In this document: in pieces, positions 5,811-28,699 of the stretch | How positions within the stretch are numbered: the stretch's first letter is position 1 | Layout: every line of letters starts with the position of its first letter | Origin: a virus | DNA length: 64,000 nucleotides | Virus record (IMG/VR): IMGVR_UViG_3300025030_000006 | Reading direction: 5' to 3' (one strand) | Notes under the pieces: generated by a model | Told to the model about the DNA's origin: nothing | The model's database searches: none | Seen by the model: the letters and a program-made list of their open reading frames with translations, nothing else | Position numbers and translations under genes: made by a program

Positions 5811-5996
5811 ATGTATACAGGAGAGGATATTATAAATGGAATAAAACACATGCAAAATAATGGAAAATATTATATAACAGCGGATGCAGAAGAATTTGCA
5901 AAAAGAGTGATTAATCATATAAATATGTATAGACATGATAAATACATTGAAGAAGTATTTGATAAATCAAAACAAGATATGGAAGAAAAACTATAA
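5811..5996 (+). CDS. hypothetical protein
   Basis: AGGAGA RBS before ATG 5811; last gene of rightward block. Confidence 0.55.
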   Translation: MYTGEDIINGIKHMQNNGKYYITADAEEFAKRVINHINMYRHDKYIEEVFDKSKQDMEEKL

Positions 5997-6000
5997 AATA

Positions 6001-6032
6001 TAGCCCCTTTCCAAATCATAGGAAAGGGGCTA
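6001..6032. terminator. bidirectional intrinsic terminator between convergent blocks
   Basis: Perfect 12-bp stem TAGCCCCTTTCC/GGAAAGGGGCTA, 8-nt loop, A/T runs on both sides. Confidence 0.75.
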
Positions 6033-6098
6033 TATTTGTGTCTATAATCACTATAAAATAATGAATATTCCAGTAAAACATACCAATAATTCTGAATA

Positions 6099-6233
6099 TT
6101 AGAACTTAAAAAGCGTATAATTTATTATAATTCCATCCTCTAATCTTTCATCAAAATCCCTTCTAGCACGTTCTTTTTCCAAAACACAACCATACAAAAT
6201 AAAAGTCATAAGGAATAAAAGAATTAGTTTCAT
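6099..6233 (-). CDS. small lipoprotein (44 aa)
   Basis: MKLILLFLMTFILYGC lipobox-type signal; ATGA overlap with upstream gene; below track cutoff. Confidence 0.5.
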   Translation of the reverse strand: MKLILLFLMTFILYGCVLEKERARRDFDERLEDGIIINYTLFKF

Positions 6234-6508
6234 ACAATAACCCTTTCTTTATCATATTTCTCTACAATCCTGAATGGGGTATCAAAAGCCTTGTTTTCCT
6301 CTTCCATTGAATTGAAATAGTAATCATGAATAGCCAAGAGAGCAATCAAGGCAATACGGATAATTTTAATAGTGCTGGTCACTTCTCCGGTATGGTAATT
6401 CAGATAGGCTTTCAAACCAAATATGCTTATTTTATGAGTAACCACAATAGCAGTCTTGGCTACCTTTAAAACTTTCCTTTTAATTTCTTTTCTTCCTTGT
6501 TTATTCAT
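6230..6508 (-). CDS. hypothetical membrane-associated protein
   Basis: AAGGA RBS; hydrophobic IIRIALIALLAI segment. Confidence 0.55.
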   Translation of the reverse strand: MNKQGRKEIKRKVLKVAKTAIVVTHKISIFGLKAYLNYHTGEVTSTIKIIRIALIALLAIHDYYFNSMEEENKAFDTPFRIVEKYDKERVIV

Positions 6509-7166
6509 TATTTAATTCCTTTTCATCAATGTATGTTCTATCATCTTTTCTTATTTGCCACCATGCAGCTGCACCATATTTTCTAAACCAGTCTCTTCCC
6601 TTTACCCAAAATTTACCTTTAGCAGAACAAACAACGTGGATAAACTCTTCTTGTGAAGCACAAATGAAATTATTATTTTCATCATATTGGTTTACCCATA
6701 CTTTTTTAATTCCATCCACGATAACAATATGGTCTGTTCCTTTAAACATAAGTTTCTCATCATAAGGACCAGTACCACTCATTGATATACTTGTTAAAAT
6801 AACCCAACCACTTCTCAATAAACCTTCTATTCTATCAGTATATTCCCTTGCAGGTTCAAAATGATAAAAATTAGGATTGAATCTGCTTGTATAAAAATTA
6901 GGAAGAACACAATCAGTATAAATATCAACGGTTCTATCATTTTGGTGATTGCACAAAGCATAAAAAGCAAAATGGTAAAAATCCCATGAATTACATAAAT
7001 GTCCTTGCTTATCTTTAAATGCCTCAAAGACCTCATCAAAGGTTACTTTGTTTTCTGGAAATAAATAATTGATTGCAGCAGTAGTGGCACAAGCAAAACA
7101 ATCCCCACCGGGATTTTTCTTTGGGTAGGGTTGTAAATGTGGTTCAATGTTTAGACAGAATTCCAT
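6501..7166 (-). CDS. hypothetical protein, papain-like cysteine peptidase candidate
   Basis: GAGGAA RBS before ATG 7166; GGDCFACATTAA (Cys) and DHIVIVDG (His) spaced as in C39/CHAP-like folds. Confidence 0.3.
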   Translation of the reverse strand: MEFCLNIEPHLQPYPKKNPGGDCFACATTAAINYLFPENKVTFDEVFEAFKDKQGHLCNSWDFYHFAFYALCNHQNDRTVDIYTDCVLPNFYTSRFNPNFYHFEPAREYTDRIEGLLRSGWVILTSISMSGTGPYDEKLMFKGTDHIVIVDGIKKVWVNQYDENNNFICASQEEFIHVVCSAKGKFWVKGRDWFRKYGAAAWWQIRKDDRTYIDEKELNNE

Positions 7167-10629: not shown

Positions 10630-11598
10630 TTAAAACTTTGCTTTGCAGAATTCAATAAATTCGGAATAAGCATTATCATCTACGTCCTCGTTTTCTTCAA
10701 GGATGATATCCAAAATTTCATTTTCCTCGGCATCACCGAAGCAATCATAACCATCAACCATTTCCAAAATATCTTTAATCGTGCTTTTTTCAATTCCCAG
10801 ATTTTTAGCAAAGGTTGAAACACTGAAAACAGGAGAATTCCCTTTTCCCTTTTCTCCCTTTGCCGTTTCTGTTTTCCCTTTGGTATCAATATAGGTTTGC
10901 CAAAGTGCAGAAACAAATTGCTTTTTGCTTTTTCTTGCACAGATAAACCCTTTACCATTATCTTGATTTTTCTTTTCCACTGCTTTCAGTGTTGTTTCCA
11001 TTGTTTCAATCGTGGAAAAATCACAGCCTTTAAAAGCAAGATTGAAATTTTCTTCGGTGACATTCCCGGAAAAATACTTTTGAAATTGTTTGAAAGCATT
11101 ACCCGGAAGATTGTTATTTGTTGTTTCCTCTTCTTTCTTTTGTTCAGTAGGTTTTACTGATTCAACCTGTTTTGTTTTCACGTTCAAATCAACAAGATTT
11201 TTCAAGAGAGTGATAATTTGATCGTTATTGTTATTGAACGTAATACTGTGCAGTTTTTCCAATTTTGCGTTGTTTTCTGTCAATTGCGCCTCAATGACCA
11301 TTAACCGGGAAATAATAGCATCAAGAGATTGTTTGACTTCCTTGACAGCTGCAAATCCTTCAAGAGATAATGCCGGTTTGGTTTGGATATTGATTGATTG
11401 TTTCTTTTCCTGTGCGAGTTTTTTAGCCGCTGCAAGTTTACTCATGGTTTTAAACTCCTCTGTTAATGGTTTAAAAACATCGAAAAAATGCGTTTTTCCA
11501 TTGTGGCTGTAAAACTGTCTCACCTGATAATGGTTAACTCTCAATTCCCTTTCTAATTTCCCGTTTGTTTTAATGCTTTTTTCTAAAAGATAGTTCAT
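10630..11598 (-). CDS. hypothetical protein (322 aa)
   Basis: AAAGGAGA RBS; basic N-terminus, central coiled coil, acidic C-terminus; no family recognised. Confidence 0.65.
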   Translation of the reverse strand: MNYLLEKSIKTNGKLERELRVNHYQVRQFYSHNGKTHFFDVFKPLTEEFKTMSKLAAAKKLAQEKKQSINIQTKPALSLEGFAAVKEVKQSLDAIISRLMVIEAQLTENNAKLEKLHSITFNNNNDQIITLLKNLVDLNVKTKQVESVKPTEQKKEEETTNNNLPGNAFKQFQKYFSGNVTEENFNLAFKGCDFSTIETMETTLKAVEKKNQDNGKGFICARKSKKQFVSALWQTYIDTKGKTETAKGEKGKGNSPVFSVSTFAKNLGIEKSTIKDILEMVDGYDCFGDAEENEILDIILEENEDVDDNAYSEFIEFCKAKF

Positions 11599-11621
11599 TC
11601 TCCTTTCCTTTTGTTAGCGGT

Positions 11622-11729
11622 TTAAGGCAATTGAATTGCTTTTGCAACCTGATTAAATACTGGGATGACATAGCAAAACATAATCAAAAGAAAAAAGCAT
11701 AGGGGAAGAAGCATCAAAATTGCTTTCAT
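11622..11729 (-). CDS. hydrophobic micro-protein (35 aa)
   Basis: AAAGGAGC RBS; MKAILMLLPLCFFLLIMFCYVIPVFNQ...; 23 nt upstream of the 322-aa gene. Confidence 0.4.
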   Translation of the reverse strand: MKAILMLLPLCFFLLIMFCYVIPVFNQVAKAIQLP

Positions 11730-11793
11730 GGTAAAAGCTCCTTTCAACTAATAGCAAAGTTAATTCCCTGCTATTTTTCAAGGGATAGAATGT

Positions 11794-11825
11794 TAGATGT
11801 TTATTCAATTAGATGTTTATTCAAT
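11794..11825. repeat. perfect tandem 16-mer x2 (TAGATGTTTATTCAAT)
   Basis: Read directly; overlaps stop codon of the 11817..11984 ORF. Confidence 0.7.
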
Positions 11826-11984
11826 GATTTTTCCAGCTAAGGACCAAAAAAGCAATTTTTCCGCGTTTATTGCTGATTCTATATCGTTAAACCTTTCTTC
11901 AGTCCGTAATGTGCGTTCACCTTTTTTATTCAATTTGTAAATTGTTATCCAATTTCTTTCATCTCTTATAATTTTGTATTTCAT
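11817..11984 (-). CDS. hypothetical protein (55 aa)
   Basis: AAAGGA RBS; MKYKIIRDERNWITIYKLNKKGERTLRTEE... Confidence 0.45.
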   Translation of the reverse strand: MKYKIIRDERNWITIYKLNKKGERTLRTEERFNDIESAINAEKLLFWSLAGKIIE

Positions 11985-13519: not shown

Positions 13520-13702
13520 ATGGAAAAGGTTATTCCATTTAAATCAAGAAAGGATATAGGGGAAAGTATAGCAAAGGATTATTTTGATGAAATGGATAAA
13601 TGGTACAATTCCTTGATTGAATATCTTGGAAAGCTGGAACAAGAATTCTTTATTAGTGAAAGGCGAAGGGGATTTAAAGTATTTAAACAATTAACCAAAT
13701 GA
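13520..13702 (+). CDS. hypothetical protein
   Basis: AAAGGAGA RBS; the 3' end lies inside the left 45-nt direct repeat. Confidence 0.6.
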   Translation: MEKVIPFKSRKDIGESIAKDYFDEMDKWYNSLIEYLGKLEQEFFISERRRGFKVFKQLTK

Positions 13703-13720
13703 AAGGAGATTTTAAAATGA
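13676..13720 (+). repeat. 45-nt direct repeat, left copy
   Basis: AAAGTATTTAAACAATTAACCAAATGAAAGGAGATTTTAAAATGA; identical to 14483-14526 except for one T. Confidence 0.85.
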
Positions 13721-14493
13721 AAAAAGAAAATGGCTGGTATATCGACGATAATAATAATAAATGGGATAGTAATTATTACACAAAGGAACTAGCAATTGAA
13801 TTATCAAAAACTCTAATTGATTGCAGTGATTGCAGTGATTGCAGGTATTGCATTAATTGCAGGTATTGCATTAATTGCAGGTATTGCAGTGATTGTAGTG
13901 ATTGCAGTAATTGCAGTGATTGTAGTGATTGTAGTGATTGCAGTGATTGCAGTAATTGCAGTAATTGCAGTGATTGTAGTGATTGCAGTGATTGCAGTAA
14001 TTGCAGTAATTGCAGTAATTGCAGTAATTGCAGTGATTGTAGTGATTGCAGTGATTGCAGTAATTGCAGTAATTGCAGTGATTGTAGTGATTGCAGTGAT
14101 TGTAGTGATTGCAGTAATTGCAGTAATTGCAGTAATTGCAGTAATTGCAGTAATTGCAGTAATTGCAGTGATTGCAGTGATTGCAGTGATTGCAGTAATT
14201 GCAGTAATTGCAGTAATTGCAGTAATTGCAGTAATTGCAGTAATTGCAGTAATTGCAGTAATTTTGAAAATAACCCTAATAGATATATTGGTAATAAAAT
14301 TGGTAGCAGAAAAGCACAAACTACCACTTATTGGTTAAATGATAATATTCAAGTTGTTTGTGGTTGTTTTAAAGGAAATTTAATTGAATTTGAAAAAAGA
14401 GTAAATGAAGTATATAAGGGAAATGAACATCATAAAGAATATATGGGTTATATTTCAATTGTTAAGAAAATAATGGAGATGGAAAGTATTTAA
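13717..14493 (+). CDS. Cys-X-X tandem-repeat protein (49 consecutive CXX triplets)
   Basis: AAAGGAGA RBS before ATG 13717; (CSD/CSN/CRY/CIN)x49 flanked by unique N- and C-terminal domains. Confidence 0.7.
   Translation: MKKENGWYIDDNNNKWDSNYYTKELAIELSKTLIDCSDCSDCRYCINCRYCINCRYCSDCSDCSNCSDCSDCSDCSDCSNCSNCSDCSDCSDCSNCSNCSNCSNCSDCSDCSDCSNCSNCSDCSDCSDCSDCSNCSNCSNCSNCSNCSNCSDCSDCSDCSNCSNCSNCSNCSNCSNCSNCSNFENNPNRYIGNKIGSRKAQTTTYWLNDNIQVVCGCFKGNLIEFEKRVNEVYKGNEHHKEYMGYISIVKKIMEMESI
13822..14262 (+). repeat. 441-bp tandem array of 49 x 9-bp units (TGCAGTGAT / TGTAGTGAT / TGCAGTAAT variants)
   Basis: Read directly; open in several frames on both strands (track ORFs 13776, 13813, 13817 are artefacts). 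Confidence 0.95.
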
Positions 14494-14526
14494 ACAATTA
14501 ACCAAATGAAAGGAGATTTAAAATGA
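14483..14526 (+). repeat. 44-nt direct repeat, right copy
   Basis: See 13676-13720. Confidence 0.85.
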
Positions 14527-15011
14527 TTGAATTGGAAAGAGCAAAACAATTGCAGCATGGGGAAATTATCCATTACTTTAATGGCAAATGTCAAAATTGG
14601 AGAGTATCGGGAAAAGTTAAATTGTGGAAAACAAGGCCGGACGAATTGAAAGTACCAATTAAATATGATTTGTATGGTAATTCCTATTTGACTGAAAAAG
14701 TATTGGATATAATACATTTGGCTAGTGAATGCCCATTATGTAAAGAGGGAAGATTGACTATTGCAGAATGTATTGATTTGGCTATTAATAAAAGTGAATT
14801 GGCAAAGCATTATGGATTGAAGAATTTTGATAATGCAATTCCTGAAATGTTGTTTGCTGAATTGATTAGGGGAACTGATTTGACTATTTATCATTTTGTT
14901 TATTCCTATGACAGATATAAATCATTTGGTGAATTGTTTCCATTGACTATTGAGGCGGAAAACAGAATGAAAGAATTGGAGATAAATATTCCTGATATGC
15001 CTAACAAATGA
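14523..15011 (+). CDS. hypothetical protein
   Basis: AAAGGAGA RBS; 162 aa. Confidence 0.65.
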   Translation: MIELERAKQLQHGEIIHYFNGKCQNWRVSGKVKLWKTRPDELKVPIKYDLYGNSYLTEKVLDIIHLASECPLCKEGRLTIAECIDLAINKSELAKHYGLKNFDNAIPEMLFAELIRGTDLTIYHFVYSYDRYKSFGELFPLTIEAENRMKELEINIPDMPNK

Positions 15012-21824: not shown

Positions 21825-22034
21825 ATGAGTAACCATAATAAAATTGATTTTAAAAATGCTTCCATAGAATTGCTTGATTCAGCTATAGTTGTGCTTGGTT
21901 TGGCTATTAAATGGTATGAAGCAGAAAATTTTGATAGGGAGGAACTTTGTGGTGGTGAACAATGTGATACTTGCAATCTGGCAAAAGGGGTCAAAGAATT
22001 TTTGAACAAACAAAATAATGAAACCGAAAGTTAG
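21825..22034 (+). CDS. hypothetical protein
   Basis: AAAGGGGAAAAGGAA before ATG 21825. Confidence 0.55.
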   Translation: MSNHNKIDFKNASIELLDSAIVVLGLAIKWYEAENFDREELCGGEQCDTCNLAKGVKEFLNKQNNETES

Positions 22035-23520
22035 ATTGCCAATTTGGAAAGTATATTTGTATAATCTGCTTTATCGTTTCAGACGATTTAAATGGATAAA
22101 TACAGGTATGCTTGAATTCGGCATGACCAACAAGGAAAAAGGTTTATTGCATGGGATGTTGCACAAATATCTCAGAAAGGAGGTAATGCGACAAGTAAAA
22201 GCAGTTCAGTATTATGAATTGGTAAGTCTCGTGCTTGGTAGTAAAATTGCCATAGCTACCAAGGAAGAAATTCAATTGGCAAATAAACTATTCATCTCTT
22301 ACAAAATCAACACAAAGGAGCTAATCATGGAAATGAAACAATTGAAGAAATTCGCTGAAGAAGTTGGTCTTACTGCTAAAGCAATTAAAGGAATGGAAGA
22401 AGATGAATTGATTCTTGAAATTGTGAAGAATTTGGATGCTGATACCACTTATTCTGATGATTTCATTGCTTGGTATGATGAATTGCCGGAAGAAATGTTT
22501 GATGAGGCTGACGCAATTGATGAAGAGAAACCCAAGGGCAAAGGCAAGAAGGAAAAAGAAGTAGAGAAGGAAGAGGAAGAAGAAAATGATTTCTCTGAAT
22601 TGATTGGAGCAATTGAAGAATGTACGGAAATTGATGAATTGGTAGAGATTGCCCAAGATGAAGATTTTGAAGAAATTTTTGCTGAGGTGGATACTGATAC
22701 CAAATTGGTTAAGAAACTGAAAAAAGCAATGCTTAAAGCAATTGAAGATTATGAACCTGAAGTGGAAGAAGAAAAACCTGAAGTAAAAGAAAAAGGCAAA
22801 AAGGAAGAACCCATTAAAGAAGAAAAGAAACGTGGCCGTCCTGCCAAAGAAAAAGAAGAAGTGGAAGAAGTTGAATTGGATGACGAAGCCAAGGAAGAAT
22901 TGGTTACTGCAATCAATGAAGCTGATTCTACTGAAGACCTGAAAGAAGTAGCTGATTCGGTAAAAGAAGATTATCCCGAATTGTTTAAAGGTATTGCTTT
23001 CCGTTCTGGTCGGGGCAAATCCCCTTATCGTGAATTGGAAGAAGTTCAGGCAGAAATGCTTGAAAAATTGGGCGCTGAAGTAGAAGAAAAAGAAGAGGAA
23101 GAAGAAACTGAAACGGAATTGGAAATCACCGCTGAATCCGTAAATGATGCAGTTGAAGCAGATGATAAGGAAACTCTGGTTGCAATGTGTGAGCAATTGG
23201 AAATTGAATTGAAACCTTTGATGAAAAGGTCTGCTAAGAAAATGGCTGAAAAGATTGTTGAAAAACTTCCCAAAGAAAAACCGGGGAAACGCGGATTGAA
23301 AGGGAAAGACAAAAAAGAAAAAGTAGAAGAGGTTGCAGAAGAAAAAGGAGAAAAACAATCTGTTTTCGCTTTGGTTGAACAAATGGTAAATGATGGTGCC
23401 AAAGAAAAAGATATCGTTGCAGCGTGTGAACCTATTCTCGCTGAAAGAGGAAAGAAAAAACTCTTTGTAGCAAAGTTTGTTAAATCTTTGATTGCCATTG
23501 TTGAATCTCTTGAAGATTAG
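22018..23520 (+). CDS. highly charged Glu/Lys-rich protein with HeH/Rho_N-like motif; probable true start ATG 22327
   Basis: Only ATG 22327 has an RBS (AAAGGAGC); LKKFAEEVGLTAKAIKGMEEDELILEIV; long EEK/KEE tracts. Confidence 0.65.
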   Translation: MKPKVRLPIWKVYLYNLLYRFRRFKWINTGMLEFGMTNKEKGLLHGMLHKYLRKEVMRQVKAVQYYELVSLVLGSKIAIATKEEIQLANKLFISYKINTKELIMEMKQLKKFAEEVGLTAKAIKGMEEDELILEIVKNLDADTTYSDDFIAWYDELPEEMFDEADAIDEEKPKGKGKKEKEVEKEEEEENDFSELIGAIEECTEIDELVEIAQDEDFEEIFAEVDTDTKLVKKLKKAMLKAIEDYEPEVEEEKPEVKEKGKKEEPIKEEKKRGRPAKEKEEVEEVELDDEAKEELVTAINEADSTEDLKEVADSVKEDYPELFKGIAFRSGRGKSPYRELEEVQAEMLEKLGAEVEEKEEEEETETELEITAESVNDAVEADDKETLVAMCEQLEIELKPLMKRSAKKMAEKIVEKLPKEKPGKRGLKGKDKKEKVEEVAEEKGEKQSVFALVEQMVNDGAKEKDIVAACEPILAERGKKKLFVAKFVKSLIAIVESLED

Positions 23521-24801: not shown

Positions 24802-26466
24802 ATGTCTTTCTATTTTGAATTTCCCTCCATAGAAAGAAAATCAAAAACTAATTTTGATTGCAACAAATGCACTTTAAAGAATAATAAAATTCAATCCCCA
24901 GAAATGCAAATGTATGTTGGAGAACAATACGAAGGATTAATTATTTTAGGAAACAAAGCATCAAAACATGATGATGAAAAGGGATTTCCTTTTGCTGATT
25001 CCCGTTCAAAAATATTGAGAAGTACAGCCGCAAAATTCAGAATTAATTTATCAAAACAAGCCGCAATGCTTCATGCTGTTTCCTGCTATAACCCTACCAA
25101 AAAGAAAACTTCTGATACACATTTTAAATGCTGTCAAAGTATTTTAGATGCACGTCTTAAAGAATTACGTCCTAAATTGATTATCTGTTGTGGTGAATTG
25201 GCTTTTAAATATATTTTTGGGTTGAAAAACAAATATGCCATTTCAAAATTAAGAAACAGAATCATTCCTAATTACCAATACAACTGTCTGGTTTTTCCTG
25301 TTTACGACCCTTATAATTATGAAATGTATAACACCAGAAAAGAAGAGGAAGAACTAAGTTATTATTACGAACATGCTTATAAATGGGACTTACAAAGAAT
25401 ATTTGAATTATGGGATAAGAAATTTCATAAAAGAACGGAGGTCAACAAAGTTCTGAAAGAAAGAAAAATTCTTGAGAATATTGAAATAAAAGAAGTAACT
25501 GATTTCCATGAAGCCAAGGAATTATTCAGACTTTGGAATAAATCTAAAGCCATTTGCCTTGACTATGAAACCACTAATTTGTTTCCTTATGATAATCATT
25601 TTGAAATTGTTTATGCTGCCTTTGGAAATAAAACAAATGCTTGGGTTTTCCATGAAGATTTTTGGAAAGATAATCCATTCGTAAAGATTTGGTTCAAACG
25701 TCAAATGCAAAGGATTCTGGTTAATCAGAAAGTATTGAAAGTAGTTCAGAACAGCAAGTTTGAAGATTTATGTTCTAGGTTTGTTTATGGAATAAAAGAA
25801 ATAAAGAATTCATTTTGTACCATGCTGGCGCAACACGTAATTGATGAAAGAGAAGGATGTACTTCATTGGATTTCCAGAATTTAATACGGTTTGGAATTC
25901 CTCCTTATAATGAAACCATAAAGAAATATTTGATAACGGATAAGAAAGCCAAGGAAATTGAATCGGATGATTCAGAAGATGAGATGGAAGAAATCATTGA
26001 ATTGGATGAAGCAAAAGCATATACGTTTCAGAAAGTAAATAAAATCAGAGAAGCACCAAAACAAGATATGATTCAATACAACGGCCTTGACGTTATTACA
26101 GCATTTAATCAGTGGGTTTTATTTGAAAAAGATTTGTTGGATTCCTATCCTAAAGCCAGAGAGAATTACGAATTCTTGAATGAAGGTCATTGGTTGTTTG
26201 CCAGAATGAGTCAAAGAGGAGTTAATATTGGTGAACAGGAATTAAAAGATTTTGAATTGTTCTTGGAAAAAGAAATTGAAAGAATAGAAAAGAAAATAAT
26301 GGAGATACCGGAAATTCAAGAATATAACAAGCATTTGGAATCAAAAAGTTCAAAGACAAAGAAGAAAAAGAATGATAAGCAATTGGAAGATTTATGTTTT
26401 TCTAAACCTAAAAAGATTCGGTTGATTAATAGAAAATTTGATTTTACGGAAGGAGAAGAGAAATGA
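24802..26466 (+). CDS. polA: DNA polymerase I family, part 1: UDG-like domain, 3'-5' exonuclease and start of thumb
   Basis: Family-4 UDG-like GEQYEGLIILGN...GFPFAD; Exo I CLDYETTN, Exo II QNSKFED, Exo III YNGLDV. Confidence 0.8.
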   Translation: MSFYFEFPSIERKSKTNFDCNKCTLKNNKIQSPEMQMYVGEQYEGLIILGNKASKHDDEKGFPFADSRSKILRSTAAKFRINLSKQAAMLHAVSCYNPTKKKTSDTHFKCCQSILDARLKELRPKLIICCGELAFKYIFGLKNKYAISKLRNRIIPNYQYNCLVFPVYDPYNYEMYNTRKEEEELSYYYEHAYKWDLQRIFELWDKKFHKRTEVNKVLKERKILENIEIKEVTDFHEAKELFRLWNKSKAICLDYETTNLFPYDNHFEIVYAAFGNKTNAWVFHEDFWKDNPFVKIWFKRQMQRILVNQKVLKVVQNSKFEDLCSRFVYGIKEIKNSFCTMLAQHVIDEREGCTSLDFQNLIRFGIPPYNETIKKYLITDKKAKEIESDDSEDEMEEIIELDEAKAYTFQKVNKIREAPKQDMIQYNGLDVITAFNQWVLFEKDLLDSYPKARENYEFLNEGHWLFARMSQRGVNIGEQELKDFELFLEKEIERIEKKIMEIPEIQEYNKHLESKSSKTKKKKNDKQLEDLCFSKPKKIRLINRKFDFTEGEEK

Positions 26467-26714: not shown

Positions 26715-26937
26715 TAAAGATATTACTGAAAAAATTATTATTGGTGAAGGTTTTACAGATGAAGAATTAAATAAAGCAATAAATTTTTATTCTAATTTAT
26801 GTGATTCTATTAAATGTCTTGGAATACGTTATGATTTGGTTTTTTGTGATTTATTTCACACACTGGATAATTTGCAATCAATTAGATATTTTAGGGAGAA
26901 AAGAAATGAACAAGAGCAAATATGTAAAAGGATATAA
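26704..26937 (+). CDS. hypothetical protein inserted between the polymerase halves
   Basis: Same 19-nt RBS/start string as 26463. Confidence 0.5.
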   Translation: MIISKDITEKIIIGEGFTDEELNKAINFYSNLCDSIKCLGIRYDLVFCDLFHTLDNLQSIRYFREKRNEQEQICKRI

Positions 26938-27280
26938 TGACAGATATACCCATTTGGGTTTGGCAAAAATTGAAGAATTATTGAAAAATCATAAAGTTCC
27001 AATTGATTTGAAAATTGAAGATGTTTATGCAAGAGCAGATGTAATGGTAAAAGAAATAAATAAAAATCTCCCCAATAATACAAAACAATTTAAACGTGGT
27101 CAATTGTTAGAACATATTTCTTGGAATGAATATGGATTTTATAAATGGAATGCCTTGAAAGCATTGCTTATGAGTAGAGAGAAATTGAGGGAACAAAGAG
27201 AAAAAGAAAAGAATAAAAATTTTGCAAAGAATTATGGTAAACAGGTTAATAAAATTAGTGAAGCAATTCATGGAGTATAG
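26906..27280 (+). CDS. hypothetical protein inserted between the polymerase halves
   Basis: GGGAGA RBS before ATG 26906 (in frame with track ORF 26801). Confidence 0.5.
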   Translation: MNKSKYVKGYNDRYTHLGLAKIEELLKNHKVPIDLKIEDVYARADVMVKEINKNLPNNTKQFKRGQLLEHISWNEYGFYKWNALKALLMSREKLREQREKEKNKNFAKNYGKQVNKISEAIHGV

Positions 27281-27286
27281 AATAAA

Positions 27287-28699
27287 ATGGATATGTTATT
27301 CAATACCCAAAGTAATATGCAGCTTCAGGAGTTTTTATATGAATTCCTAGAATTGAAACCACCAAGGGCAAAGAATGATAAAGGTAATTATTCGGTAGCA
27401 GAAGAAATATTAATTCATCATGCAGAGAAAGATGAAGTTGAATTCTGCAAATTACTGTTGAATATACGTAAATTGAAAAAAGCAAGAAATACTTATGCAA
27501 GGGGATTTAGAAGATATAAGGATGAATTGGAAGGAATGATTCATCCTGATTTTTGGCTTAACACAACAAAAACTTATCGGAGTTCTTCATCAAACCCAAA
27601 TTTTCAGAATTTGCCAAAACACGGTGAAATTATTCCCGGTATTGAGTGGCAAACGATTCGTAAAATATTCACCAGAAAATTATTAATTGAAAAGATAAAA
27701 GCTGGAGAAATAGAATTTACAATTCAAAATGGATTCATTGGTGAAGTTGACTATGTTGGTGCTGAAGTTAAAGTTGCCGCCGCTGAAGCAGACGATGAAC
27801 AATTGATTACTGATTTAAATAATGGATTCGACCAACACTCACATTGGGCTGGCGTTTTATTCGGAATCAATAAAGCAATTGAGGAAATAAAAAAGATACA
27901 CACTGAAGAAAGATTCCTTGCAAAGAATAACTTTACCTTTGCCAATCTCTTTGGTGCTGGCAATACTTCAATTGCGGAGGAAATGCGTAAAAGTGAATTC
28001 TACGTTGAATTTGTAAGAAAAGCATTTGAAAAAGCAAGACAATCAAAGGGGTTTAAATCCTCATGGAATGATTTTTTTAAAGAGTATTCGGAACAACATA
28101 TTCAGGAATGTCAAAATGTTTTTTATGACCGATATAAAGATGTAAAAGCATGGCAAGAATGGGTAGTAAAAAAATATTATGACGTTGGCTATGTAGAGAA
28201 CAAATTTGGGTTTAGAAGAAGATACCCAATGAAGCGTAATGAAATAATTAATTTTCCAATACAGTCAACAAGTTTTCATTTACTCCTTCATTCATTGATT
28301 GAAATTGAAAAGAAAATGGAACAATTGGATTTACAATCTAAATTGGTTGGTCAGATTCATGACTCTGGATTTTTTAATATTGTGAGAAGAGAAGCAGAAC
28401 AGGTTATGGATTTAATTGAATATGAAATGACTCACAAATCATTTGATTGGCTTAAAAAAATTAACCTAGAAGCTGAATTCGAGTTGTCTGATGATAGCTG
28501 GTACAATTTGAAATTGGAAAATAAATGGTTTGAAGCAAAACATATTAAATCAGAAGAAGTATTTAGAGAAAAATTCCTGCATGGATTTACAACTGATATA
28601 GGAATGGATGTTGATTTAATTGCAAAGATTCTGGCAGGGAAAAAGGACAAGGAAGGTAATCTGTATAAACTAGAAAATTGGTCTTTTTCCTATATTTGA
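27287..28699 (+). CDS. polA: DNA polymerase I family, part 2: thumb, palm and fingers
   Basis: FNTQSNMQLQEFLYE (FN.nS.kQL), SSSSNPNFQNLP, motif A VDYVGAEVKV, motif B RFLAKNNFTFANLFG, motif C QIHDS. Confidence 0.85.
   Translation: MDMLFNTQSNMQLQEFLYEFLELKPPRAKNDKGNYSVAEEILIHHAEKDEVEFCKLLLNIRKLKKARNTYARGFRRYKDELEGMIHPDFWLNTTKTYRSSSSNPNFQNLPKHGEIIPGIEWQTIRKIFTRKLLIEKIKAGEIEFTIQNGFIGEVDYVGAEVKVAAAEADDEQLITDLNNGFDQHSHWAGVLFGINKAIEEIKKIHTEERFLAKNNFTFANLFGAGNTSIAEEMRKSEFYVEFVRKAFEKARQSKGFKSSWNDFFKEYSEQHIQECQNVFYDRYKDVKAWQEWVVKKYYDVGYVENKFGFRRRYPMKRNEIINFPIQSTSFHLLLHSLIEIEKKMEQLDLQSKLVGQIHDSGFFNIVRREAEQVMDLIEYEMTHKSFDWLKKINLEAEFELSDDSWYNLKLENKWFEAKHIKSEEVFREKFLHGFTTDIGMDVDLIAKILAGKKDKEGNLYKLENWSFSYI

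Follow-up and report, generated by a model that had tools for sequence, protein, structure and literature searches.

What kind of protein is built when every third residue is a cysteine, and is such a repeat read as protein at all? This question is raised by a gene in viral DNA from IMG/VR (record IMGVR_UViG_3300025030_000006). We analyzed a whole stretch of 64,000 nt, hereafter the window, to which all positions refer. The gene (13717..14493, plus strand; ATG at 13717, TAA at 14491-14493) is a complete coding sequence for a protein of 258 amino acids (aa) with a mass of ~28.5 kDa, an isoelectric point (pI) of 4.3, and 51 Cys residues (19.8%). An earlier note, made from the letters alone, described this protein as a 35-aa N-terminus, 49 uninterrupted Cys-X-X (CXX) triplets at 13822-14262, and a C-terminal domain of roughly 77 aa. 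The first two parts of this description proved exact when compared with the sequence, the list of open reading frames (ORFs), and the output of a script; the C-terminal domain is 76 aa long, and the 77th codon is the stop. In our preferred interpretation, to which we assign a probability of roughly 0.45, the array would form a metal- or disulfide-stabilized, length-tunable rod in a non-enzymatic early phage protein.

The CXX frame is the coding frame

The N-terminal module (aa 1-35; 13717..13821, plus strand) carries the motif NGWY.D.NNNKW....YT.E.A...S.TL.(D/N)C, and AlphaFold2 predicted it to adopt a beta-beta-beta-alpha arrangement. The N-terminus, MKKENGWYIDDNNNKWD, is without a hydrophobic signal segment, so that no signal peptide is read from the sequence. 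The array that follows, (C-[S/R/I]-[D/N/Y]) x 49 (13822..14262, plus strand; pI 4.05), is encoded by 49 units of 9 bp. These are of only five kinds: 23 copies of TGCAGTAAT (CSN), 14 of TGCAGTGAT and seven of TGTAGTGAT (both CSD), three of TGCAGGTAT (CRY), and two of TGCATTAAT (CIN). Tandem Repeats Finder gave the array a score of 636 (period 9, 49.3 copies, 91% matches), which makes it by far the strongest repeat of the window, and the longest exact repeat inside it measures 71 bp. The C-terminal alpha/beta domain (aa 183-258, 76 aa; 14263..14490, plus strand) carries the motif NP.R....IGSR..QTT.YW.....VVCGCF.G.L.EFE..V........Y. Upstream, the ribosome-binding site (RBS) AAAGGAGA is located at 13702-13709, with its GGAG 8 nt before the ATG at 13717. 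The ATG at 13699, another conceivable start, overlaps the stop codon of the gene before it, and every homologue begins at the MKK..NG.Y position.

A repeat of this kind could be no protein feature at all: the 9-bp microsatellite might be non-coding, be read in another frame ('VIAVIAG...'), or be an artefact of assembly, with the Cys periodicity incidental. The array can be read through without a stop in all three forward frames and in two of the reverse ones, most assemblies from short reads are interrupted within it, and the public gene call on an ENA contig with an identical array is a 170-aa hydrophobic ORF in the +2 frame ('VIAVIAGIAL...', window 13826-14338). However, only the CXX frame joins the conserved N-terminal and C-terminal modules in one ORF with a proper RBS, and we therefore take it to be the true frame. 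The TGC/TGT differences within the array of the window are synonymous, and related arrays that are nearly without DNA repetitiveness still keep the Cys phase. The array is also no obvious product of assembly, the condition that the earlier note named as refuting: in the independent ENA contig k141_400306 (98,675 bp), the order of the 49 units is identical, and allele-specific k-mers exist from k>=61. The non-protein reading is effectively refuted by the family evidence and is hardly tenable. The CXX ORF is a genuine, single-copy gene, and its product is missing from the public record because the public gene call uses the wrong frame (13826-14338, +2).

Two further proteins, P0153 ('TAVTALTAG...') and P0234 ('TATTATTA...'), look like out-of-frame CXX arrays joined to an in-frame C-terminal domain.

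The cysteine register is maintained at the protein level

Substitutions were counted in 211 non-identical array proteins comprising 4,269 CxxC steps, and losses were scored at in-phase positions with two Cys on each side. The register slipped at only four of the 4,269 steps. Forty-four in-phase Cys losses were found, among which replacement by Ser predominated (30), followed by the residues F/L/V/I/M/A (11), with Gly and Asp seen once each. Replacement by R, Y, or W was never observed, although a single mutation of TGY would give each of them and R and Y occur frequently at X.

The homogeneity of the DNA varied widely among the arrays. With a mean unit identity of 0.89, the array of the window ranks second in homogeneity among the 58 arrays compared. 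In the arrays of the Campylobacter phage CP21, 31 of 43 and 39 of 54 units are distinct and the unit identity is 0.57, which is only slightly above what the shared TG of the Cys codon gives; their phase is nevertheless perfect. Ser at the first X position (X1) is encoded by AGT (310 codons) as well as by TCN (390 codons), and this use of both codon families indicates that Ser is selected as an amino acid. At the second X position (X2), D, N, G, and Y prevail. On these counts, the every-third-residue Cys is evidently under strong protein-level selection, independent of DNA repetitiveness, and Ser at X1 and D/N/G/Y at X2 are likewise protein-level preferences. The proposal that the X repertoire is simply the one-mutation neighborhood of TGC-AGT-GAT was rejected, as it holds only partly: 80% of the X2 codons fit, and Ser at X1 uses both codon families. 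Since its DNA units are homogeneous whereas its relatives are diverse and in phase, the array of the window is probably a young, recently expanded form of an old motif, C-S-[D/N/G/Y].

The protein belongs to a widespread phage family

A search for (CXX)n relatives, which the earlier note had proposed, returned 524 homologues at E<=1e-3 among 5.8 billion proteins, so the protein is not an orphan. None of them carries a Pfam domain and all are named 'hypothetical'. The 120 best homologues have the same three-part architecture, with 9-36 in-phase CXX triplets. Their N-terminal motif is NGYW.D.NNN.W....YT.E.A...S.TL.NC, in which N14, W16, A26, S30, and L33 are near-invariant, and their C-terminal motif is NP.R....IGSR..QTT.YW....VVCGCF.G.L.EFE..V........Y. 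PHROG 15341 (function unknown) matched the window protein over residues 1-135 with an E value of 7.4e-41, and the N-terminus alone with 1.2e-12. By these criteria of similarity, the window protein is evidently a member of a widespread, uncharacterized phage family. No published account of phage (CXX)n proteins turned up in literature searches.

Homologues of the N-terminus plus array are annotated in the Campylobacter Firehammervirus phages CP21, CPt10, CP220, IBB_35, and others, and models of the CP20 and IBB35 proteins in BFVD, a database of predicted viral structures, match the N-terminal module. The only array seen that is longer than the 49 triplets of the window is that of CP21_166, with at least 54. 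CP21_165 and CP21_166 are adjacent (L002:4001-5438), and the second is very acidic (CEDCEKCSEC...). The family thus has no assigned function despite more than 500 close relatives and homologues in cultivable Campylobacter biocontrol phages. It is also systematically under-annotated, as gene callers choose the wrong frame and assemblers break at the arrays.

The array stands in the position of a beta-solenoid

The C-terminal domain offered a second route into the relationships of the protein. PHROG 20532 (E 4.4e-13) and PHROG 7964 (E 4.8e-7) match this part of the window protein, and the C-terminal family profile found it in the window with an E value of 1.8e-35, as one occurrence only. When only the C-terminal domain served as the profile in an exhaustive search, 2,221 cluster representatives were obtained at E<=1e-3. 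Architectures were tallied for the 141 top hits that had not been found in earlier searches. In 45 of the 141, the domain follows a CXX array; 54 are short proteins (<=100 aa), many of which contain little beyond the domain. In the rest, it mostly follows pentapeptide repeats (PF00805, E 1e-37 in P0252) or hexapeptide/YdcK/bactofilin-like repeats. P0199, like P0252, contains PF00805 and shares the C-terminal domain with the window protein. Consistent with this tally, a Foldseek comparison with the BFVD structures matched the domain to phage proteins named 'beta solenoid repeat', 'YdcK', and 'pentapeptide repeat', with a probability of 1.0 and a root-mean-square deviation of 1.1-1.5 Å over ~63 residues. 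The A(D/N)LXX repeats of PF00805 gave no Pfam match in the window protein itself.

The same C-terminal domain therefore occurs in several settings: it is fused elsewhere to pentapeptide or hexapeptide/YdcK-type beta-solenoids, or stands alone. The CXX array thus sits at the place that a beta-solenoid takes in related proteins, which is a positional equivalence. A hybrid array in P0171, (DCFGLRDCSDLV)n, has every second Cys replaced by Leu, which suggests that the Cys positions are core positions. Given this swap of repeats on one C-terminal domain, the function of the pentapeptide versions is probably also that of the CXX versions.

Predicted fold and a candidate rod

Modeling of the flanking domains, another proposal of the earlier note, gave confident results for both. 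With the family alignment, AlphaFold2 assigned a predicted local distance difference test (pLDDT) score of 88-97 to residues 1-40 (beta-beta-beta-alpha) and of 88-98 to residues 178-258 (four strands and two helices), so that the two modules together span 88-98. Pfam and NCBIfam scans yielded nothing significant for the whole protein, each terminus, or the family profiles, and neither did sequence searches of the PDB with the same queries; Foldseek searches of the PDB with the two models gave best E values of 0.3-0.6. The view of the earlier note that the array cannot be assigned to a known fold is borne out, as Pfam, NCBIfam, and the PDB (by sequence and by fold) were blank and an hhalign comparison with the antifreeze protein TmAFP gave a probability of 0.8%.

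The metal-chelating or disulfide-laddered rod suggested in the earlier note is plausible. The rod model is inferred from three observations, namely the positional equivalence with solenoids, the pattern of Cys substitution, and the turn-forming residues (D/N/G) at X2. In this model, stacked Cys side chains would fill the core of a thin rod formed by the array, and the polar, net-acidic surface of Ser, Asp, and Asn would face outward. The core would be held by bound metal or by disulfides, and metal would be the likelier in the reducing cytoplasm, since the protein is without a signal peptide. TmAFP (PDB 1EZG) has a 12-residue coil, TCTxSxxCxxAx, in which residues 2, 5, 8, and 11 (C, S, C, A) lie in the core, with one disulfide per coil. 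If the array were wound into 12-residue coils like those of TmAFP, its 147 residues would make ~12 coils and a rod of ~6 nm. The protein itself would most likely be a scaffold or mimic of tunable length, without enzymatic activity, that acts on the host at an early stage of infection.

Several results weigh against this model. AlphaFold2 found no confident fold for the array, with a pLDDT of 30-44 for 49 triplets and 40-63 for 11 triplets, and these low values are equally compatible with a chain that may be natively unfolded or dependent on metal clusters. A superperiod of 6 or 12 residues (two or four triplets) in the X residues was not reproducible; depletion at lag 2 and enrichment at lag 4 were weak and disappeared in diverse arrays. 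What is shared with the solenoid proteins is a C-terminal domain, that is, an equivalent position and not an equivalent fold. Homology to TmAFP (PF02420) was rejected, as no Pfam match was obtained at E<=1, a PDB hmmsearch gave an E value of 0.085 with a bias of 42.6, and the hhalign result was the 0.8% given above; the CPt10 record carries weak PF02420 matches.

A bolder form of the rod model is tentative and somewhat doubtful. Here, (Cys-X-X)n would be a kind of solenoid not described before, built from tripeptides and analogous, in miniature, to the quadrilateral helix of pentapeptide-repeat proteins; the four core Cys of each 12-residue coil would ligate a metal column or form a disulfide ladder. 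On one and the same C-terminal domain, phages would exchange this thin, acidic, length-tunable rod for penta- and hexapeptide solenoids, for instance to mimic a nucleic acid or a protein against a host target. In a more extreme variant of the same idea, the Cys- and Ser-rich core would be enzymatically heterocyclized, as in microcin B17 or heterocycloanthracin. A cysteine-cored rod, if real, would add a new repeat fold, with a solenoid repeat shorter than any other known, and would be of interest to protein design and metal biology as a natural metal-thiolate or disulfide nanorod whose length can be tuned genetically.

The main rival to the rod is a metallothionein-like thiolate sponge. In this alternative, the unfolded array would wrap metal-thiolate or Fe-S clusters, or buffer oxidants and electrophiles, and thereby manipulate the metal or redox state of the host, with the termini solubilizing or targeting it. 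The array consists of 33% Cys with Ser, Asp, Asn, and Gly between, and it is made of consecutive CxxC and CxxCxxC motifs; the CxxCxxC heptapeptide is the classic Fe4S4-binding element (PMC3320576). A pLDDT of 30-44 is what would be expected of a metal-dependent fold, and in a cytoplasmic protein without a signal peptide, free thiols or metal ligation are likelier than disulfides. However, there was no Pfam or NCBIfam match to a metallothionein or ferredoxin. The register is kept at ~99%, with the four slips noted above, which is a geometric constraint that a flexible chelator with mixed spacings does not need. Lost Cys residues became Ser or hydrophobic residues rather than the ligands His or Asp, save for one Asp, and the replacement of alternate Cys by Leu in P0171 does not fit. 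The positional equivalence with solenoids would also be left unexplained. We therefore consider the thiolate sponge rather unlikely and prefer the rod.

Copy number probably changes in frame

The array of the window includes a perfect tandem duplication of 63 bp, or seven units (13948-14010 and 14011-14073, plus strand), as part of a period-63 exact run from 13946 to 14079. Forty-nine units are found in the window and in ERZ27254732 k141_400306, and 42 units in ERZ27254729 k141_928766 and ERZ909590 k127_212024. The flanks of the 49-unit and 42-unit assemblies are identical (0 mismatches in 1,902 bp), and the two differ by exactly one copy of the perfect 63-bp block. Because its allele-specific k-mers start at k>=61, reads must underlie the 49-unit allele; for the 42-unit allele, unique k-mers are absent below k=81, so that it may be real or an assembly collapse. 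A 49/42-unit length polymorphism is probable, and the length of the array would change by duplication or deletion of blocks in frame. The array of 49 units may have expanded recently by slippage or unequal recombination. Across homologues, the number of triplets ranges from 5 to 54. The expectation of the earlier note that copy number may vary therefore holds among homologues, and assemblies of the same phage carry either 49 or 42 units.

The same note suggested that the array may act as a contingency locus, that is, a phase-variable element in which slippage switches or tunes expression as a bet-hedging device of the population. The homogeneity of the array (unit identity 0.89), the presence or absence of the perfect 63-bp block between same-strain assemblies with identical flanks, and the span of 5-54 triplets among homologues would all suit such a locus, as would P0153 and P0234, which appear to read the array in another frame. 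However, the 9-bp unit and the 63-bp indel are both multiples of three, so that they alter the length of the protein and never switch the gene off; the claim is thus not supported in the usual sense of the term. Moreover, the array lies inside the coding sequence and not in a promoter, and only two length alleles were seen, of which the 42-unit one could be an assembly collapse. A contingency function is accordingly unlikely.

Most short-read assemblies break inside the array, and several ENA contigs of ~98.4-98.5 kb (L036, L055-L057) begin or end there. As several assemblies start or end in it, the array is taken as the break point of a probably circular or terminally redundant genome of ~98.5 kb.

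The array is combined with several unrelated termini

ORF scans for array architectures covered 27 viral loci and 13 loci from metagenome-assembled genomes (MAGs), and (CXX)n was found with at least five different sets of termini. Type A is the architecture of the window. Type B has a homologous N-terminus and a short '..RPELDINNRRLEIEL' tail, and some phages (L010, L013, L014) possess 5-7 paralogues of it in tandem. Type C combines a helical N-terminus with an 'N.KYMI.NIQFT' tail, and type D begins with 'MTQIFNSYSEF...'. Other C-terminal domains are found in L018, L023, and L048, and a version with a lipoprotein signal (MKKFFLTLFAALALVASSC...) is encoded by a Prevotella sp. MAG (L042:4890-5399). 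In an Acidobacteriia MAG (L048:4083-5510), two adjacent paralogues differ in both the N-terminus and the C-terminal domain, the latter being ~85 aa long. Among 185,579 species genomes, all 13 matches were on MAG contigs and none was in a cultured isolate. From these architectures, the array is evidently a module that has been shuffled among several unrelated termini.

Multiple copies within one contig were also noted. A 166-kb phage contig (L006) carries three type-A or A-like copies at 169-750, 5992-6636, and 11577-11903. The IMG/VR contigs L010, L011, L013, L014, L019, and L027-L029 carry 5-7 tandem short CXX paralogues within 7-12 kb. The tandem paralogues have in common the N-terminal module and a conserved C-terminal tail ('..RPELDINNRRLEIEL' or '..RPFIDCTNRLLEPDL'); the arrays themselves are hypervariable, and between the genes lie small ORFs of SH3-like type.

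[quoted passage not shown] The only described Cys-Xaa-Xaa repeat system is heterocycloanthracin, whose precursor combines a leader of ~35 aa with a CXX core that varies between strains, and the maturase gene lies far from that of the precursor (PMC2674419). The arrays of types B-D, which are short, hypervariable, and present as 5-7 tandem paralogues, resemble multi-copy RiPP precursors. An rSAM gene adjoins the CXX gene in L026 and lies three genes away in CPt10, and the window protein shows a weak, sub-threshold match to the His-Xaa-Ser repeat protein HxsA4.

Other results do not agree with a precursor. TIGR03601 gave no match at E<=1 with the whole window protein or its N-terminus, and none with five other array proteins; no other precursor family was matched either. 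The window protein has 258 aa and two confidently folded terminal domains, against 50-90 aa for precursors, and its C-terminal domain also occurs in solenoid fusions and stand-alone proteins. Clustering of all neighbors of the 27 viral loci yielded no conserved partner gene or enzyme and no conserved neighbor family. The window contains no ORF with an rSAM motif, and its scanned ORFs of >=200 aa gave no YcaO, nitroreductase, or Lan-type Pfam match, although the known system encodes its maturase remotely. As CPt10 has 12 rSAM genes (PMC2853527), the adjacency in this phage is expected by chance, and both rSAM enzymes (L026 and CPt10) score below every curated cutoff. A RiPP precursor is therefore very unlikely, although the short, multi-copy proteins of types B-D might be of this kind.

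Two narrower proposals were rejected. rSAM coupling as a general feature was dismissed because it is seen at only two loci, because CPt10 encodes 12 such genes, and because both enzymes are of a generic MoaA/SPASM-like type. Membership in the HxsA family was not supported: HxsA4 matched the window protein with an E value of 0.012 and 16.4 bits against a cutoff of 55, and no rSAM gene is present in the window. The two rSAM genes, L026:4713-5687 (minus strand) and L001:5240-6256 (CPt10_1671), are homologous and lie in otherwise non-syntenic loci, which is probably a coincidence. HxsC, the His-Xaa-Ser maturase, is the second-best NCBIfam match of the CPt10 enzyme.

Genomic setting of the gene

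The window has a G+C content of 30.7%, and its transcription is nearly all rightward from ~12 to 58 kb. It encodes a split family-A DNA polymerase, a UvsX-like recombinase, a DnaB helicase and a second helicase, SbcC/SbcD-like proteins, a 5'-3' exonuclease, ThyX, and a PD-(D/E)XK nuclease. The CXX gene lies in a run of small co-directional ORFans beside these replication genes, a setting that is early or non-structural. From this gene content, the window evidently represents the replication/early region of a large lytic-type phage with a genome of ~98.5 kb. Identity look-ups of flanking genes found the same phage in at least eight groundwater metagenome assemblies of ENA (98.4-98.7 kb), and no DNA-level similarity to any annotated phage was found.

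An exact 37-bp direct repeat brackets the gene, with two copies in the window against none expected in 100 shuffles. Within the upstream copy (AAAGTATTTAAACAATTAACCAAATGAAAGGAGATTT; 13676..13712, plus strand) lie the RBS of the CXX gene and the stop codon of the 60-aa gene before it. The downstream copy (14483..14519, plus strand) overlaps the stop codon of the CXX gene and provides the RBS of the next gene (14523-15011). The pair resembles a putative cassette boundary, or may be a duplicated translation-initiation region, and recombination between the copies would cleanly excise the CXX gene. A promoter and terminator scan at the CXX gene gave nothing beyond shuffled expectation.

Two other features of the window were recorded. 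The ORF at 22018-23520 (plus strand) encodes an acidic low-complexity protein of 500 aa that is extremely rich in Glu and Lys and has no PHROG or Pfam match; the G+C content is locally higher (0.354), and long ORFs on the antisense strand run across it. Two ORFs make up the split family-A DNA polymerase (24802-26466 and 27287-28699, plus strand) and match consecutive positions of PHROG 17 (478-893 and 896-1257), and the ~800-bp gap between them contains an ORF of 159 aa (26801-27280).

Comparison with known systems

The nearest annotated relatives are the Firehammervirus proteins (CPt10_1641, CP21_165, CP21_166, and the CP220 homologue). They resemble the window protein in their N-terminal module (46-56% identity), which leads directly into an in-phase CXX array. 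Unlike it, they have no C-terminal IGSR/CGCF domain, and their arrays are diverse, with E/K/I/V at X1 and no repeat at the DNA level, whereas the array of the window is almost homogeneous and longer than most.

The TOMM precursors of the heterocycloanthracin/sonorensin type (TIGR03601; Haft 2009, PMC2674419) share with the window protein a conserved N-terminus of ~35 aa followed by a copy-variable Cys-Xaa-Xaa region. TOMM precursors are 50-90 aa long, have ~10-13 Cys with Gly-rich or Trp-Ser interspaces, and come with a dedicated operon for cyclodehydratase, dehydrogenase, and docking proteins. The window protein, in contrast, ends in a folded domain of 76 aa and matches no such family.

Phage beta-solenoid proteins carry the same C-terminal domain immediately after their repeat region, with profile E values down to 1e-27. 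The repeat of the window protein differs from theirs in being a tripeptide with Cys as its sole fixed residue, and it has neither a solenoid match in Pfam nor a solenoid in the AlphaFold2 models.

TmAFP resembles the array in having a Cys-rich repeat with much Ser, Thr, Asn, and Asp, and the core position at every third residue is a geometric analogy only; the hybrid array of P0171 (C, L, C, L) echoes its alternating pattern. TmAFP is secreted and has a Cys every six residues, whereas the window protein is without a signal peptide and has one every three. Metallothioneins also consist of about one-third Cys with small polar residues between and no hydrophobic core. They are proteins of ~60 aa with mixed CxC, CC, and CxxC spacings, whereas a strict period-3 register between folded flanks is the mark of the window protein.

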